Source: a virus | Taxonomy: Duplodnaviria; Caudoviricetes | Length of the DNA stretch: 56,730 nucleotides | Direction: 5' to 3' (one strand) | IMG/VR virus record: IMGVR_UViG_3300025121_000062 | Location: 1-56,730 of that record | Shown: in pieces, positions 3,609 to 20,374 of the stretch | Numbering within the stretch: the first letter of the stretch is position 1 | How the letters are laid out: every line of letters begins with the position of its first letter | Notes under the pieces: model-generated | Told to the model about the DNA's origin: nothing | Seen by the model: the letters and a program-made list of their open reading frames with translations, nothing else | Databases searched by the model: none | Position numbers and translations under genes: made by a program

Positions 3609-4372
3609 TGTTGATTATTGGCCTAGCCGGCGGCGCCGGAACGGGAAAAGATTCCATCGCCGACTACCTTGTCCAGCGATACGGGTTCGTCAAGTTCTCA
3701 TTCAGCGACGCCCTCTACCGCGAAGTGGCGGAGGCGTTCAGCCTGGAGAACGAAGACCTGCTGCGCGACCGGGCGACGAAGGAGGTGGTGACCCAACTGC
3801 TGGCATTGGAGAGGTGCAAGGACTTCGACTTCGCCGAATGCACGAGCCCTGTCTTGCGCTACCCTCGCTACGCGCAGCACTCCCCCCGCCAGATTCTCCA
3901 ATGGTGGGGCACCGAGTACCGACGCGCCCAAGACCCCGACTACTGGCTCAAGAAGGCTGAGGAGTGGCTGGAGGCCGTGGTTATGGCCGCGCCGTACCCC
4001 GAACTCCGACCTCAGTTGTTTGTGAATACCAGCGTCCGGTTCGAGAATGAGCGAGACTGGATCAAAGACCCGAACGGTAGCATCTGGCACCTGCGCCGCG
4101 CAGCTGCCACGCCGGTTCGCGCCCACGCCTCAGAGAACGAACTGCCAGTGCTCGACGACGAGCGGGAAATCTACAACAACCACACCCTCGATTACCTGCA
4201 CAAGGGCGTCGATCAACTGCTGTCGAGCAGCGCACAGTACGTGCGGCTGGAACCGCCGGCGCCGATGGTCGAGCCTATGGTATACGATGGGTTCCAGAAC
4301 ATCGATCCGAACTCCACAGGCGCGAAGAATATGCTGAACTTACTCGGGTATGGGTCCGAAGGGGGAAACTGA
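3608..4372 (+). CDS. deoxynucleoside monophosphate kinase
   Basis: IIGLAGGAGTGKD P-loop, FSDAL, PRQILQWWGTE, VRFENE, HASE (T4 gp1 / T5 dnk-like). Confidence 0.9.
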   Translation: MLIIGLAGGAGTGKDSIADYLVQRYGFVKFSFSDALYREVAEAFSLENEDLLRDRATKEVVTQLLALERCKDFDFAECTSPVLRYPRYAQHSPRQILQWWGTEYRRAQDPDYWLKKAEEWLEAVVMAAPYPELRPQLFVNTSVRFENERDWIKDPNGSIWHLRRAAATPVRAHASENELPVLDDEREIYNNHTLDYLHKGVDQLLSSSAQYVRLEPPAPMVEPMVYDGFQNIDPNSTGAKNMLNLLGYGSEGGN

Positions 4373-5598
4373 TGGCCACGCCCCCACTTTCCGACACCCT
4401 CGTACAAGAAGCCATCAACGCCCTTGCCGCCCGTGGTGGGAACACTGTCCACGCCGCCGCCATGCTTGGGATAGGGCGCGGCGCACTACAGGGCCGCATC
4501 AGGGTGGGAAAAGAGCGCGGCATGACCCCCAGCGCCGGAACGCCCGACGCCGACGATGTCCAGGGCCTGAAGTCCAAGGTCAAGCGGCTCGAAGCCGCGC
4601 TCAAGTCGCACGAGAACCAGTCCGAGCAGGGCTGCCAGATCAAGGCCGTCATCGGTGCCATGGGCAGGCAGGTCGAGGAACTGGACCCACCCCCCTGGAC
4701 AGTGACGCCGCAGAAGAAGGCCACCTCCCCCGGCGTGCCGACGCTGTTCCTGTCGGACCTGCACTGGGGCGAGACTGTGTTCCCATCGCAGATCAACAAC
4801 GTCAACGAGTACAACGTCAAGATCGCCCACAAGCGCATGGACACCTGCGTCAGCTCAGCCATTCACCTGCTCAAGATCATCTCACCCGGCATGGACTACC
4901 CTGGCATCGCGATCCCGCTCGGCGGCGACATGATCAGCGGCAACATCCACGACGAGCTGACCGCCACGAATGAGATCAATTCGATGCCTGCGGTGCTCGA
5001 CCTGTACGGTGTCCTGGTCGGCGTGATCAGCGCGATGGCGGATCAGTTCAAGCATGTGTTCCTACCGTGCGTCAGCGGCAACCACGGCCGCGACACCAAG
5101 AAGATATGGAACAAGGACCGACACCATACCTCGTTCGATTGGCTGCTCTACCGCTTCTTGGCGAAGCACTTCGATGGCGACAAGCGCGTCACGTTCTTCA
5201 TTCCCGACAGCTCGGACGCCTACTACAAGGTCTACAACCATGCCTACCTACTCACCCACGGCGATCAGTTCCGCGGTGGCGATGGCTTGATTGGCTGCCT
5301 CGGGCCTATCATCCGCGGGGACCACAAGAAGCGAAGCCGCAACGCGCAGATCGACATGGAGTATGACACCATGCTGCTCGGCCACTTCCACCAGTATCTG
5401 CACCACGGTCGAGTGATCGTGAATGGCAGCCTGAAGGGCTACGACGAGTACGCCTACTCGGGCAATTTCGGTTTCGAGCAGCCCCAGCAGGCGCTGTGGA
5501 TTACCCACCCGTGCCACGGTCAGACGTTCCGCATGCCGGTGTTCGTCGGGAATCAGCAGGCCGGGGCGAAGACTGAATGGGTCAGCGTGCCGAAATGA
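4372..5598 (+). CDS. calcineurin-like metallophosphoesterase with N-terminal HTH and coiled coil
   Basis: SDLHWG, GGDMISG, GNHGR, THGD and GHFH motifs. Confidence 0.85.
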   Translation: MATPPLSDTLVQEAINALAARGGNTVHAAAMLGIGRGALQGRIRVGKERGMTPSAGTPDADDVQGLKSKVKRLEAALKSHENQSEQGCQIKAVIGAMGRQVEELDPPPWTVTPQKKATSPGVPTLFLSDLHWGETVFPSQINNVNEYNVKIAHKRMDTCVSSAIHLLKIISPGMDYPGIAIPLGGDMISGNIHDELTATNEINSMPAVLDLYGVLVGVISAMADQFKHVFLPCVSGNHGRDTKKIWNKDRHHTSFDWLLYRFLAKHFDGDKRVTFFIPDSSDAYYKVYNHAYLLTHGDQFRGGDGLIGCLGPIIRGDHKKRSRNAQIDMEYDTMLLGHFHQYLHHGRVIVNGSLKGYDEYAYSGNFGFEQPQQALWITHPCHGQTFRMPVFVGNQQAGAKTEWVSVPK

Positions 5599-15667: not shown

Positions 15668-18471
15668 ACACTGCCGAGTTCCTCAAGAAAATTTTGCCCT
15701 CCGCTGGCCTGTATGTCATCGGCCGCCTGACTGCCAAGGGGATGTGGCATCAGGTATGCGAATCGGTCGAGGAGGCAGCAGCGTTCGCACTCCAATGTGA
15801 CGCACAGGGGGTTGCTACCTATCACGCAGTTGCGTCCTACCGCGAGCGCCAAGTCGAATCCGTGCGCCCCGACGGCACGGTATGGAAGCAAGTCCGCACA
15901 CACAAAAACGTGCAGTACCTTCGTAGCTTTTTCCTCGACCTTGATGTGAAGCCAGGTAACCCGGCGGCATTTGAATCCCAGGAGGATGCGTGCGAGGCGC
16001 TCCGCAAGTTCTGTGATGCGGCGGGGCTGTCGCTCCCCCTTTTGGTATCCTCTGGCACCGGGGTACATTGCTACTGGGTGCTCGCTCAAGACATCATCCC
16101 TGCAGCGTGGAAGCGCACGGCTGACGGGCTGAAACTACTCTGCGCTAGCCTCGCGTTCAAGGCGGACCCGGCGGTGACCGGCGACCTAGCCCGCATACTC
16201 CGCCCCGTAGGTACATGGAATCGGAAAGACCCACAGAATCCGCGCGCAGTTGAGATAGTCTATGACGCTGACCCCGTCGAGTACGCCGCTTTCGATGCTC
16301 GTGTTTCGGCAGCGTTAAAAGCGCATGGTGTCAAGCCCCCTGAAGGGGTTCGTCAAGTTGTAGCCCCGGCAGAGAAGATAAACCAGCAGTTCGACATTGC
16401 CAGGGACTTCCCACCATGCTCTATTACCAAGGTCGCAGAGAAATGCGCGCAGGTCCGGTCGGTTCGCGATTCTCGCGGGCTCGTATCAGAACCCGCGTGG
16501 TATAGTTTCATACAACTGGCATGCCATTCGACTGAAGGCGATGCCACAATTCATGAATGGAGTAACGGCCATGCCTCATATTCCGCTGAGAAAACAGCTC
16601 GCAAGATTACTCAGATACGCAGCCAGTCTCTTGGACCCACCCTATGTACCACGTTTGAAAGTCGCGTACCCGGCGGGTGCGACGGCTGCCCGTTCAAAGG
16701 GAAGATCAGCTCCCCTGCGCAGTTAGGCACCTACATCGTCAGTGCCCCGGCGCCGACCGTCCAGGTCACTGTCGCCAACGTCACGACCACCGTCACGCTC
16801 CCTCCACCGCCAAATGGGTATATCCGAGGAGAGGACGGCGGCATCTACGTCGAGGAGGATGGGGTTACGACGCGCATTTACGAGTTCGACTGCTTCCCGG
16901 TCGAGCTGGCGCATGACGAGCAGCTTGGCTACGAGACGATGCGGTGGCGGCACTGGCTCCCACAGGAGGGCTGGAAGGAGTGCACCCTGCGTTCGTCGCT
17001 GGTGGCCAAGCCGGCCGACTTCATGGTAGCCCTGATCGACAACCACATCCAACCCCTCATAAAGGCCAAGTTCATCATGTATGGAGATGCCTACATCCGC
17101 CGCTTGCGTAGCGACACCAAGCTGCGGCAACTGTTCAAGTCGCAAGGATGGAAGCATGACGACACCGAGTTCGTGCTGGGCGACAAGCTGTACCGCCCCG
17201 ACGAGGTGATCCAGGCGGGCTTCAGTCATGGCATGGCAGAGTTCCTTGCCCCCTTCCACGCCAAGGGCAGCATCGAGCCATGGCGTACCCTGACGGAGGT
17301 GTTCGACCATCCGGGCTTCGAGCCCCACGCCTTCATGCTGCTGCTCGCCTTCGCCGCCCCGCTGCTCAAGCTGGCCGGCCGCGAGGGGAGCACCATCAAC
17401 GCGCTGGGCGAGTCGGGCGTCGGCAAGAGCACCATGGCGCAGTTTATGTCCAGCGTCTACGGCTCGCCCAAGGGCGCGTGGGTCGGCCGCGACGACACCA
17501 AGCTGGCGCGCATGCAGCGGCTCGGCGCCCACTACAACCTGCCGGTGTACATGGACGAAGCCACGACGATCGACAACAAGGATCTGCGCGACCTGATCTA
17601 CTCCATCCCCACCGGCAAGAACCGCACCAGCATGAAGGCCGACTACACCATGCGGCCTGGCGCGGAGTGGGTCACGCTGTTCGTCACCTCGACCAACAAC
17701 TCACTCCAGACCAAGCTGCAACTGGAGAACCAGAACGCCGAGGCCGAGACGCTGCGACTGTTCGAGTTCAAGTTCCCGCGGGTTTCAGCGTTTGCTGAAA
17801 TCGCCAAGATCATCCCGTCGGTCATTCAGGAGAACTACGGAGTAGCCGGGCCGATCTACATCCAGTACCTAGTGCAGAACCGCGACACCATTCGTGAGCG
17901 GCTGCGCGACTTGGAGAACGGCGTGGTGGCACAGGCCGAGCGCGGGATGCAGATGAACGACAAGGAGCGCTTCTGGTCGCAGATCGTTGCACTGGCCATG
18001 TACGGCGGCGAACTGGCGCGGGCGGCGGGCGTGATCAGCTTCGACCCGCGCCGCATCCACAACTGGCTGCTGGGCGAGACGCAGCGCATGCGCTCCACAC
18101 TGGACGAGAGTGTGGTCGGCCCGGTGGCCATACTGGCCAACTTCCTCAATGAGCACGTCGGCGAGAGGCTGGTGGTGAACCCGTTGAACGCCGACATGAG
18201 CGCGGTGCAGGACAAGCCCTACCGCGAGGTCAGCCAGCGGTACGAACCGAAGATCAAGACGCTGTGGATCAGCCGCAAGCGGATCAAGTTCTACATGGAC
18301 AAGAACCACTTCAACTTCGCTGAGACCGAGACGGCGCTGATCAAGATCGGTGTGCTGACTGAACCGCGCACCGTTCGGACCCTCGGTGCCGGGACCAACT
18401 ACGCCTCCGGCCCGACGCCGTGCTGGCAGGTGGATGTGGGGCATGCAGAAATGGAAGGGGTGGCGGTATGA
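15664..18471 (+). CDS. primase-helicase (AEP/RepB-like primase, Cys cluster, DUF927 helicase)
   Basis: FFLDLD, SSGTGVHCYW, RILRP.GT.N, C...CDGC, Walker A GESGVGKST, Walker B YMDE; start at MNTAEFL. Confidence 0.85.
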   Translation: MNTAEFLKKILPSAGLYVIGRLTAKGMWHQVCESVEEAAAFALQCDAQGVATYHAVASYRERQVESVRPDGTVWKQVRTHKNVQYLRSFFLDLDVKPGNPAAFESQEDACEALRKFCDAAGLSLPLLVSSGTGVHCYWVLAQDIIPAAWKRTADGLKLLCASLAFKADPAVTGDLARILRPVGTWNRKDPQNPRAVEIVYDADPVEYAAFDARVSAALKAHGVKPPEGVRQVVAPAEKINQQFDIARDFPPCSITKVAEKCAQVRSVRDSRGLVSEPAWYSFIQLACHSTEGDATIHEWSNGHASYSAEKTARKITQIRSQSLGPTLCTTFESRVPGGCDGCPFKGKISSPAQLGTYIVSAPAPTVQVTVANVTTTVTLPPPPNGYIRGEDGGIYVEEDGVTTRIYEFDCFPVELAHDEQLGYETMRWRHWLPQEGWKECTLRSSLVAKPADFMVALIDNHIQPLIKAKFIMYGDAYIRRLRSDTKLRQLFKSQGWKHDDTEFVLGDKLYRPDEVIQAGFSHGMAEFLAPFHAKGSIEPWRTLTEVFDHPGFEPHAFMLLLAFAAPLLKLAGREGSTINALGESGVGKSTMAQFMSSVYGSPKGAWVGRDDTKLARMQRLGAHYNLPVYMDEATTIDNKDLRDLIYSIPTGKNRTSMKADYTMRPGAEWVTLFVTSTNNSLQTKLQLENQNAEAETLRLFEFKFPRVSAFAEIAKIIPSVIQENYGVAGPIYIQYLVQNRDTIRERLRDLENGVVAQAERGMQMNDKERFWSQIVALAMYGGELARAAGVISFDPRRIHNWLLGETQRMRSTLDESVVGPVAILANFLNEHVGERLVVNPLNADMSAVQDKPYREVSQRYEPKIKTLWISRKRIKFYMDKNHFNFAETETALIKIGVLTEPRTVRTLGAGTNYASGPTPCWQVDVGHAEMEGVAV

Positions 18472-19175
18472 GAATCGAAGAAATAGGCAACGCCACGCTG
18501 ATCAACGCCGACTGCCGCGAAGCCATGCGAGCGATGGACGAGAACAGCATCGGCGCCATCGTCACCGACCCGCCCTACGGGTTGAACTTCATGGGCAAGG
18601 GGTGGGACCACGGCATTCCTGCGAAGGAGTTCTGGGTCGAGATGCTTCGCGTCGCCAAGCCAGGCGCACACCTGCTGGCGTTCGGCGGCACCCGCACGTT
18701 TCACCGGCTGATGGTGGCGATCGAGGATGCTGGGTGGGAGATCAGGGACACGATCATGTGGGTCTACGGGAGTGGGATGCCGAAAAGCAAGAACCTGCAC
18801 GGCGACTGGGAAGGGTTTGGGACCGCACTCAAGCCAGCATGGGAGCCCATCATCGTCGCCCGCAAACCCCTGATCGGTACGGTCGCTGCAAACGCGCAGC
18901 AACATGGCACCGGGGCGATCAACATTGATGGATGCAGGGTACCGACCGATCCGGACGACGACATCTTCGCCAAGAACCCGCACACGCACGGCGGCTTCGG
19001 CCACGCAAACGCGCAGGTCTACGGTGATGGTAAGGGGGCAGATTACAAACCGAAAGCGGGGCGCTGGCCCGCCAACCTAATCTTGACGTACCCGACAGAT
19101 GAGTTTATTCTGCGGGATGATGTTACACCAGAGCAACTTGAAGCACTAGCGGGGTGGCTTCGTGCGAACACCTAA
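18468..19175 (+). CDS. DNA N6-adenine/N4-cytosine methyltransferase, N-terminal (catalytic DPPY) half
   Basis: ADCREAM...IVTDPPY...GWEIRDTIMWVYGSG.PK...GTALKPAWEPI...GRWPANLI; ATGA overlap with the primase. Confidence 0.85.
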   Translation: MRIEEIGNATLINADCREAMRAMDENSIGAIVTDPPYGLNFMGKGWDHGIPAKEFWVEMLRVAKPGAHLLAFGGTRTFHRLMVAIEDAGWEIRDTIMWVYGSGMPKSKNLHGDWEGFGTALKPAWEPIIVARKPLIGTVAANAQQHGTGAINIDGCRVPTDPDDDIFAKNPHTHGGFGHANAQVYGDGKGADYKPKAGRWPANLILTYPTDEFILRDDVTPEQLEALAGWLRANT

Positions 19176-19764
19176 CACTGTCTGTATGATATGCGGGAAA
19201 CCCCTGTATCGCAGACCCTATGAACTCGCAAAGGTGCGCCACGCCGCTTGCATGGAACATCGCGCGGCGGCACAAGCAATCTCGGGTATTACACCTGCAC
19301 AACTTGCTGGATTATCCCTTGGGCGCGAGAAGGGGACAAACCATCGCACGGGGTACAAGCACCGGGAAGAATCCAAGCGCAAGGCGTCGGAGTCTCATAG
19401 AGCATTCTGCGCGGCCAACCCAGAACGGGTGGCACTGCGCAGCGCGAAAACGCGAGGTGAGGCTCACTATAGATGGAAAGGCGGAACTACCAAGCTGAAC
19501 AAGTCGATCCGACAGATGACGGAGAGCCGTCGTTGGATGGATGCGATCAAGGCCCGAGACGGATGCTGCACGCGCTGTGGGGGTGTTGAGGCCCTCGAAT
19601 CCCATCACCTTGTCGAACTGGCCGTGCTGATTGCGCAACTGGGTATCAAATCGCGTAACGACGCGCGTGCCTTCGCAGCAGTCCTCTGGGATATGGAGAA
19701 CGGTGTGACGTTGTGCCAGCCCTGTCACTACCAAGAACATGGACGGAAACGCTATGCAGATTGA
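19162..19764 (+). mobile_element. NUMOD3-HNH homing endonuclease gene inserted in the methyltransferase
   Basis: GYKHREESKRKASES (NUMOD3-like), H.RWKGG, RD..CTRCG...HH...NGVTLCQPCH..EH. Confidence 0.85.
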
Positions 19765-20374
19765 TGAATCCACTTACAAGGCGATGCCTGCGGGACTGCA
19801 GCGCCTATTCCTGCGTGTGCCGAACCCCGGCAGCGACGAGGTGCTCGCCCTGTTCCCTGACAGCAATGGGTCAGGCGGCTCGCTGCCCAACGTCAAGATC
19901 ACGGGGTATGGCGGCGGCGCGGTGGGTACGGGTAAGAGCGAATATTTCGGCGGGCCGCGTACCCCACACGATTCTGGCAGCGGCTCGGCGGCGCGGTTCT
20001 TCTACTGTGCGAAGGCGAGCAAGAAGGATCGGGACGAAGGTATGGAGGGGGAGCCGGGCAAAATTCTGGCACGATCATGCCAAGCCGAAGCCGAAGCCGT
20101 GCGGGGCAACACCGTCGCGACTGAGGGCGGCGCGTTCAACAAGGCGCGCGAGGTCAAGAACAACCACCCCACCGTGAAGCCGACCGAACTCATGCGTTAC
20201 CTCTGTCGGCTCGTCACGCCGCCCGGCGGCACGGTGCTGGATCCATTCATGGGTTCAGGTTCCACCGGTAAGGCTGCGCTCAAGGAGGGGTTCAGCTTCG
20301 TGGGTATCGAACTGGATGAGGAGCACGGCTACTTCGACATCGCCTGCGCGCGTGTCCGAAGTATGGTAAAGTGA
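19754..20374 (+). CDS. DNA methyltransferase, C-terminal (SAM-binding FxGxG) half
   Basis: GSDEVLALFP, SAARFFYCAKAS..DRDEG, NNHPTVKP..LMRYL, VLDPFMGSGSTG, GIE. Confidence 0.85.
   Translation: MQIDESTYKAMPAGLQRLFLRVPNPGSDEVLALFPDSNGSGGSLPNVKITGYGGGAVGTGKSEYFGGPRTPHDSGSGSAARFFYCAKASKKDRDEGMEGEPGKILARSCQAEAEAVRGNTVATEGGAFNKAREVKNNHPTVKPTELMRYLCRLVTPPGGTVLDPFMGSGSTGKAALKEGFSFVGIELDEEHGYFDIACARVRSMVK

Follow-up and report, generated by a model that had tools for sequence, protein, structure and literature searches.

A conserved HNH endonuclease cassette that probably splits a phage DNA methyltransferase gene without splicing and adds a peptide tail to each half

Background

The gene arrangement nrdA-a / mobE / nrdA-b of Aeromonas phage Aeh1 was reportedly described by Friedrich et al. 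in 2007. A comparable arrangement was analysed here in the window, which is the whole of one IMG/VR virus record (IMGVR_UViG_3300025121_000062; Duplodnaviria, Caudoviricetes; 56,730 nucleotides, 56.7 kb), where the two halves of a predicted DNA methyltransferase gene flank an HNH endonuclease gene and each half carries, at the break, an additional short peptide, referred to below as the N-tail (on the upstream half, or N-half) and the C-tail (on the downstream half, or C-half). In Aeh1, the insertion of mobE splits nrdA, and Crona et al. reported that the unique tails derived from the insertion are essential for ribonucleotide reductase (RNR) activity (PMC3045599). According to the same report, the tails probably promote assembly and the solution may be general; one phage was described, and other cases were predicted to be hard to find by similarity (PMC3045599). 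As that system is reported, Aeh1 and the window are alike in that a free-standing HNH gene splits an enzyme gene and leaves active-site elements on two polypeptides, in that the endonuclease gene overlaps the downstream half, and in the opposite charges of the tails. Neither RNA nor protein splicing occurs in Aeh1, and the sequence of the window suggests the same. The host genes differ, being RNR in Aeh1 and a DNA methyltransferase in the window.

The MobA / gene 60 cassette of T4-like phages, in which the remedy is a 50-nt ribosomal bypass together with a gene split (Manning and Atkins, bioRxiv 10.1101/2022.08.31.505936), resembles the window in being a mobile endonuclease cassette with repeated insertion at one site and with a sequence of its own that offsets the damage; unlike in the bypass, the downstream half in the window has its own conserved start codon, and no signals of a bypass were seen there, no search having been aimed at them. 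DNA methylases of actinophages are described as hosts of an intein, of a LAGLIDADG insert, and, in ShiLan, of a hidden out-of-frame HNH gene (PMC9957025, PMC11855218), and a likeness of the ShiLan insert to the host sequence at the site was reported (PMC11855218). By that description, ShiLan and the window share a phage DNA methylase as host, an HNH gene that is non-splicing in ShiLan and probably so in the window, a patchy distribution, and no detected intron or intein. The host frame of ShiLan is open and yields one chain, whereas that of the window stops (TAA at 19173-19175) and the C-half lies in another frame. In PMC11855218 and PMC9957025, the words 'split' and 'fragmented' are not used of a host frame that stops and restarts. 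In the metagenomic fractured genes, the two halves flank an endonuclease gene and carry parts of a split intein, by which the protein is ligated (Dassa et al. 2009, PMC2677866); the window, also metagenomic, has gene halves flanking an endonuclease gene in the same way, with tails that match split inteins neither in length nor in terminal residues.

The explanation favoured here, with a probability of roughly 0.7, is that the locus holds a non-splicing HNH homing cassette that leaves a two-chain methyltransferase.

Results and discussion

Interruption of the methyltransferase gene at a conserved site

The locus consists of three overlapping open reading frames (ORFs) on the plus strand, downstream of a primase/helicase-like ORF of 988 aa (Table 1). 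As stated in the original prediction, which was made from the sequence of the window alone, the DPPY half (18468-19175, 235 aa) and the DPFMGSG half (19754-20374, 206 aa) are separate ORFs, with an HNH ORF in the interval that overlaps both. The HNH ORF has a GTG start and shares 14 nt with the N-half and 11 nt with the C-half. The ATG of the N-half overlaps the stop codon of the upstream primase ORF, and a longer variant with a GTG start runs from 18420. The C-half also has an ATG at 19739, the start that aligns with relatives being 19754.

Unsplit homologs read across the site without interruption, as GRWPANLIHDGSEEV in Cylindrospermopsis phage Cr-LKS3 and as GRWPANLIHDGSDAV in Pseudomonas phage Medea1. 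The unsplit comparison set consisted of the 80 viral loci that match the N-half best. In 69 of these, the frame stays open for more than 100 aa past AN[LI].HD, which bears out the contiguous GRWPANLI-HD-GSDEV that had been given for homologs. The match to the N-half stops at residue 205/206, that is, at the Ile of ANLI or the next residue, in 76 of the 80 loci; the N-tail was found in none of the 80, with no match past residue 214. In the window, 30 residues and a stop codon come after ANLI, and 25 residues of the C-half precede GSDEV; the added peptides are those that had been quoted from the sequence. Where unsplit alleles have the codons CAC GAC (His-Asp), the window has the cassette. The C-tail is conserved across 21 C-halves, with P12, F19, and N24 invariant, and the start codon of the C-half and a Shine-Dalgarno (SD)-like sequence are conserved among relatives. 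The first residues of the N-tail, L-T-Y-P-x-D-E-F-x-L (19083-19112), loosely mimic the host sequence after the site, x-x-G-S-D-E-V-x-x-L (19823-19852), and the two were aligned to each other by MAFFT.

Table 1. Coordinates of the split methyltransferase and of the cassette within the window
Feature	Coordinates	Strand	Basis
Methyltransferase N-body: DPPY catalytic motif at residues 34-37, end = GRWPANLI	18468..19082	+	PF01555; DpnA/CcrM/M.RsrI profiles
N-tail: 30 codons (LTYPTDEFILRDDVTPEQLEALAGWLRANT) and TAA stop, part of the cassette	19083..19175	+	Not in unsplit loci; conserved in relatives
HNH gene of homing-endonuclease type: 200 aa, with intact H-N-H and CxxC residues	19162..19764	+	PF01844; PHROG 589
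C-tail: start codon and 25 codons (MQIDESTYKAMPAGLQRLFLRVPNP), part of the cassette	19754..19828	+	Not in L040; conserved in 21 C-halves
Methyltransferase C-body: GSDEV...ARFFY...NHPTVKP...DPFMGSG, AdoMet-binding half	19829..20374	+	PF01555; DpnA/CcrM profiles
Whole cassette, 746 bp: N-tail, HNH, C-tail	19083..19828		Window vs L040; L007/L008/L009 block; GC

Identity of the interrupted gene and of the endonuclease

In Pfam, the N-half matches positions 3-107 of the 221 positions of the PF01555 (N6_N4_Mtase) profile (E 8.5e-10) and the C-half matches positions 159-215 (E 1.8e-19). Among solved beta-class enzymes, the profile of the N-half matches the N-terminal part of DpnA, CcrM, and M.RsrI, and that of the C-half the C-terminal part of DpnA and CcrM (E about 1e-21) and also M.RsrI and M.MboIIA. 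Because the half-profiles match opposite parts of the enzyme, the break is placed in the variable middle part, which separates the catalytic from the cofactor-binding half of a Rossmann-type enzyme. Catalytic motif IV, (D/S)PP(Y/F), is present as TDPPYG at N-half residues 33-38, with D34, P35, and P36 invariant across 33 N-halves, and the S-adenosylmethionine (AdoMet)-binding motif I (FxGxG) is present in the C-half as DPFMGSG. Mycobacteriophage methylases match the N-half. By these matches the split gene is a beta-class (N6-adenine/N4-cytosine) DNA methyltransferase, the activity and target base of which are predictions.

The HNH ORF matches PF01844 (HNH) with E 7.9e-5 and 23.2 bits against a cut-off of 21.4, and the domain was detected in all eight family members; the protein also matches PHROG 589 (E 6e-10), and solved structures gave only weak matches (E 0.03). 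Its N-terminus is a Cys-rich, zinc-finger-like region, and the residues C8, C11, C30, C136, C139, H149, N180, C185, C188, and H189 are invariant. The label NUMOD3 given to this ORF in the original prediction was not upheld, there being no match in the window ORF at E<=0.1 and none in the eight family members at E<=10, a result to be read with the reservation that HMMER filters may drop the weakest matches. Against its relatives, the gene has a nonsynonymous divergence (pN) of 0.23 and a synonymous divergence (pS) of 0.74-0.82. It is not a close relative of MobE, since a tblastn search of 50,697 phage records returned nine weak matches, none of them in T4-like phages, and it has no detectable relation to the HNH of ShiLan at E<=1e-3. 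The GC content is 0.49-0.57 at 19100-19350 vs 0.60-0.68 in the flanks, and an SD-like sequence (GGAGG/GGACGGA) lies within the last HNH codons.

Recurrence in other records

Searches with the HNH protein, an HNH alignment, and an N-tail alignment retrieved 31 other records, comprising 30 viral contigs and one contig of a metagenome-assembled genome. The order N-half with tail, HNH where present, and tail with C-half was found in all 31, as far as the contig reaches. The HNH gene is full in 24 of them, cut by the contig end in one, N-terminally shortened in one, and missing in five; the shortened one, that of L110 (L numbers denote fetched loci), is without its first 59 or so residues and has an extra Cys-rich stretch at the C-terminus. 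Since the same three-ORF arrangement is present in 31 other records, the observation is far beyond chance. Of 12 tabulated loci, 11 retain the 14-nt overlap and 10 the 11-nt one.

An N-tail profile of 33 columns was run against 1.84 billion representative proteins and matched 236 clusters at E<=1e-3, of which 100 were at E<=1e-10. In 149 of the best 150 of these clusters, 0-16 aa separate the motif from the C-terminus; the remaining one is an unrelated repeat protein. In each of 37 fetched proteins, too, the chain stops directly after the motif. No unsplit protein with the tails as an internal loop was found among the best 150 of the 236 clusters, nor were the peptides found in the 80 unsplit-type loci, so that the original view of them as additions stands for the homologs searched. 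Ten longer N-tail carriers were scanned, and nine match the methyltransferase family (six above and three below the Pfam cut-off), one of which also has a LAGLIDADG domain. Because all nine Pfam-matching long carriers are of this family, the tails are taken to belong to the methyltransferase host gene only, and the suggestion that they might also flank HNH genes in unrelated host genes was not borne out. A word search with the C-tail in an index of 5.8 billion proteins returned one protein, 100% identical over a 40-aa region, the index being too coarse for this segment. The arrangement was found in none of the named phage genomes, where 0 of 412 matching records cover >=80% of the query.

Two variants were noted among the relatives. 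In one cassette lineage (L012, L013, and proteins P0111, P0124, and P0136), the N-tail stop is lost or shifted, so that the N-half extends into the HNH gene by 16-21 residues (in L012 and L013 the two overlap by 77 nt), and the extra tail, ..HTMQNMQE.., is itself conserved. In L120 (1779-2596), the N-half matches in two frames (residues 4-110, then 113-234) with a gap of about 140 nt, possibly a further break or frameshift.

Boundaries of the mobile unit

Of the loci fetched, L040 and L024 are the only ones with the primase and the downstream gene of the window (amino acid identity 78% and 69%, then 90% and 64%), and both are unsplit; the flanking genes of the window are shared by none of the 21 other split loci. 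Aligned with L040, the DNA of the window has 85% identity up to 18608, none across the variable loop and the insert, and 89% from exactly 19831, as would be expected of the discrete unit with both peptides that had been proposed. In L007, L008, and L009, a block with >=97% identity consists of the tails plus HNH and is followed by an immediate drop. The flanks of this trio are mosaics of blocks with 97-100% identity and patches with 20-50%; the trio therefore defines the unit and does not prove transfer. The HNH was more alike than either flank in all ten pairs compared.

In an unrooted tree of the C-bodies, with 21 split and 51 unsplit rows, the row nearest to the window is L040 (78% amino acid identity). 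The split state needs 10 changes on this tree, at least three of them forced by well-supported branches, and shuffled labels gave a mean of 18.4. Gain and loss of the cassette are inseparable on an unrooted tree, gain being the simpler reading for the lineage of the window.

The divergent segment 18609-19082 was considered as a co-conversion tract, and this was dropped, related genes being mosaic in the same variable regions. The divergent patches of L008, at about 2495-2620, 2773-2889, 3669-3790, and 3851-3968, are sharply bounded and have 20-50% identity; two of the patches of the L007-L009 trio adjoin the cassette, in presumed target-recognition loops, and the pattern suggests segment swapping.

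Selection on the tails and descendants without HNH

Divergence in the tails was averaged over 36 pairs of nine loci, the N-tail being taken outside the HNH overlap. The N-tail has a pN of 0.31 vs a pS of 0.87 and the C-tail a pN of 0.37 vs a pS of 0.80, with the third codon position varying most in each, and pN is below pS in both half-bodies too. This pattern indicates that both tails are translated and under purifying selection, and the pseudogene-like ratio named beforehand as an argument against a functional split was not seen in the tails, the half-bodies, or HNH.

Two lineages are without HNH, one represented by L129 (identical to L130-L132 over 4.8-5.1 kb) and the other by L133, with 66% DNA identity to each other in the adjacent N-half. 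Both keep the N-tail with its stop codon and the C-tail with its start codon, with about 40-65 nt in between, and this spacer is a fused remnant of HNH made up of its first 4-7 and last 16 or so codons. The tails of L129 and L133 have a pN of 0.27 vs a pS of 0.57 and 0.86. As lineages without HNH retain both tails under selection, their retention has a reason other than the endonuclease, and by this comparison the split outlives the element that caused it.

The halves of L133 are in one frame with a single TAG between them. Reading of this TAG as sense was tried and rejected: with TAG=Q, none of the four complete and one end-truncated other ORFs (>=70 aa) lengthens, and stop-codon recoding is therefore unsupported. 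L129 also holds a full-length tmRNA gene at 356-714 (RF00023, 82.6 bits, E 6e-31), about 1 kb upstream of the split methyltransferase, which would be either phage-borne or the mark of a prophage end at ssrA.

Proposed mechanism and the role of the tails

In the mechanism proposed for the favoured homing cassette, a free-standing HNH endonuclease cassette would insert at the conserved GRWPANLI-HD-GS(D/E)EV site of a phage methyltransferase, where HD marks the two residues replaced, and would stay in the mRNA unspliced. The upstream half would be closed by 30 codons and a stop codon of the cassette itself, HNH would be read in a second frame, and the downstream half would restart in a third frame with the start codon and 25 codons of the cassette. 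Given the ORF overlaps of 14 and 11 nt and the SD-like sequence in the HNH end, coupled translation of the three ORFs as one operon is probable. The enzyme would then consist of two polypeptides and require non-covalent reassembly. HNH would carry the cassette into unsplit alleles, its target being predicted from the site of insertion, and on later decay of HNH the gene would remain split and the tails would remain.

When the halves were folded alone, the N-tail was predicted to form a helix at N-half residues 221-233 and the C-tail helices at C-half residues 5-10 and 13-20, each with a predicted local distance difference test (pLDDT) score of about 72-77, i.e., moderate confidence, so that the folded character ascribed to the peptides was recovered in part, as helix. 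Of 20 distinct tail pairs, 19 have an acidic N-tail, and the C-tail is mostly basic. These helical tails of unlike charge would exit the fold close to one another; most likely they pack against each other or against the partner half and thereby neutralise the break, as shown for NrdA-a/NrdA-b of Aeh1. A role of the tails in the assembly of the halves is given roughly even odds by this analysis, and the wider proposal, that the tails are a portable heterodimerisation module and an integral, co-inherited part of the homing cassette, is advanced tentatively, at somewhat less than an even chance.

Several points weigh against this account. The near-invariant His-Asp of unsplit homologs is gone and split forms have Asn-x instead, a loss that could mean altered or lost activity. 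In the halves folded alone, pLDDT is <50 near the break (N-half 167-216 and C-half 22-77). A prediction of the complex of the tails only (N-half 194-235 with C-half 1-36, with alignments and with controls not run) scored 0.13 against a mark of 0.32 and counts neither for nor against the account. The net charges of the tails are anticorrelated (raw rho -0.64, n = 20), and charge complementarity was rejected as evidence and given no weight because it comes down to two or three phylogenetically independent contrasts, which are without statistical weight. The L007-L009 trio, with its mosaic flanks, is by itself no proof of transfer between divergent alleles, and the check for an internal loop covers the best 150 of the 236 profile clusters and not the other 86. 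Binding of the halves or tails and DNA methylation by the split enzyme are inferred from sequence, and it is by arguments of the same kind that an unknown splicing or recoding route is excluded.

Alternative explanations

A self-splicing intron of group I or unknown type, with the HNH ORF inside it, would make the tails read-through products, and the spliced mRNA would restore the methyltransferase. Phage group I introns often carry HNH genes (PMC3428280), the insertion site is highly conserved, and the start of the N-tail resembles the sequence downstream of the site (I-x-x-x-[P/S]-E-[D/E]), a feature similar to one reported for ShiLan (PMC11855218). However, Rfam gave no match at E<=10 in 18800-20100 and no intron family at E<=1 in L129, L133, L007, L005, and L096, where the other matches were an unrelated tmRNA and a sub-threshold snoRNA-like sR23 (E 0.31; L096 3912-3964, outside the cassette). 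Beyond the HNH ORF, the insert has 79 nt before the start codon and 64 nt after the stop codon, and both stretches are coding, with a codon-position pattern and pN well below pS, in keeping with the original remark that no space is left for a ribozyme. The conserved start codon and SD-like sequence of the C-half, the forms without HNH, which are reduced to the tails and about 40-65 nt and so are too small to house a ribozyme, and an insert end that is not G when placed at 19828 also speak against an intron, which is considered very improbable. Even more remote is the reading of the tails as parts of a split intein by which the halves are joined through protein trans-splicing, although metagenomic fractured genes are on record in which split-intein halves flank a free-standing endonuclease gene (PMC2677866). 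The first residue of the N-tail is Leu in 12 of 12 loci and not Cys or Ser, and at the end of the C-tail an Asn stands before one variable residue (P, H, F, A, or Y) and then G, A, E, M, or N, with no His-Asn followed by Cys, Ser, or Thr at the junction. Split-intein halves are far longer than the 30 and 25 aa of the tails, which are far too short for this role. No intein or Hint domain was found by Pfam in either half, and the true inteins of the family look different (Awesomesauce gp76, with its insert between AWLYG and C, and L126), so that the absence of intein signatures noted at the outset holds for length and end residues alike.

Decay of a dispensable methyltransferase killed by the endonuclease, with the halves as remnants and the tails incidental, would fit the frequent dispensability of phage methyltransferases argued for in PMC11855218 as well as the loss of the conserved His-Asp. 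It is rendered improbable by the catalytic motifs DPPY, NHPTVKP, and DPFMGSG, all of which are intact, by pN below pS in both bodies and both tails, by the 236 clusters that keep the tail with an intact N-half, and by an arrangement that outlasts the loss of HNH in two diverged lineages. There is also an unlikely, if less strained, alternative in which the tails serve the endonuclease or its expression, through coupling, HNH control, or tethering, or the dimerisation of the heterodimer, rather than acting as a clasp between the halves. The conservation of the 14- and 11-nt overlaps in 11 and 10 of 12 loci, respectively, is in its favour, and in Aeh1 the tails are reported to be dispensable for the contact of NrdA-a with NrdA-b and needed for the higher-order dimer (PMC3045599). 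Service to the endonuclease is made unlikely by purifying selection on the tails that persists where HNH is gone and by amino acid-level selection that spans the whole tails, beyond the overlapping nucleotides.

Other inserts in the methyltransferase family

The intein, LAGLIDADG, and hidden-HNH types of insert described in the ShiLan papers were all seen in loci related to the window. L040 (3001-4650) is unsplit at the site used in the window; another insert, about 440 nt long, separates ARFFY...RDRNSGL from HPTVKP in this locus, and within it an inner ORF in another frame (4029-4454) encodes an HNH_3 endonuclease of 141 aa (E 3e-13) while the methyltransferase frame of 549 aa is open. By sequence, this insert is a 'hidden HNH' of the ShiLan kind that is not close to anything in mycobacteriophages. 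At this position, L054, L098, L126, L128, L136, and L137 have gaps of about 430-480 nt.

An in-frame LAGLIDADG_1 domain (E 7e-16) lies just after DPPY in the N-half of cassette carriers (L096 at 1369-2511, also L097 and L098), and no intein ends were evident in this insert in L096-L098. An intein-like in-frame insert with Cys as its first residue follows AW(V/L)YG in L126 (753-2072) and L003 (Mycobacterium phage Awesomesauce gp76), which makes this a third site in the methyltransferase gene family. Out-of-frame ORFs of 170-208 aa with zinc-finger-like CxxC...C..C motifs sit in N-half inserts of L110 (1639-2262), L128 (808-1317), and L136 (1654-2253), with the host frame open, and are possibly further hidden endonuclease genes. 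Some methyltransferase genes carry three or four selfish inserts.

Comparison with Aeh1

The precedent of Aeh1 nrdA/mobE cited in the original prediction was apt and at the same time underrated, the essential role of element-derived tails having already been reported there. The principle is not new for this reason (PMC3045599). What is new is the different host enzyme, the different HNH lineage, a conserved and widespread family of tails within the mobile unit, and natural descendants without HNH. As reported, Aeh1 is a single case, whereas in the family of the window conserved tails travel with HNH across many alleles and HNH-less descendants exist. The polarity of charge is opposite to that of Aeh1, the N-tail being acidic in the present family, and the function of the tails, proven in Aeh1, is inferred here. 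No account of a methyltransferase split in this way, with tails, came up in a literature search, the library searched being incomplete.

Conclusions

In annotation, split halves of the cassette type are easily miscalled as truncated genes or pseudogenes. The cassette family offers hundreds of tail-pair variants, many divergent methyltransferase alleles, unsplit sisters, and descendants without the endonuclease, and the tail hypothesis is therefore testable by comparison and simple co-expression. If the tails bind, they would be compact natural tags for the reassembly of split proteins. For a phage methyltransferase family with known inteins, LAGLIDADG inserts, and hidden HNH genes, the cassette would be a fourth kind of selfish insertion. 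If the tails are indeed a portable heterodimerisation module, this would be a third general route, alongside introns and inteins, by which an endonuclease gene could settle in the conserved core of a protein-coding gene and yet spare it, which may be called 'split and clasp'; decay of the endonuclease would leave a permanent two-subunit enzyme, and selfish elements would in this manner create heritable new quaternary structure.

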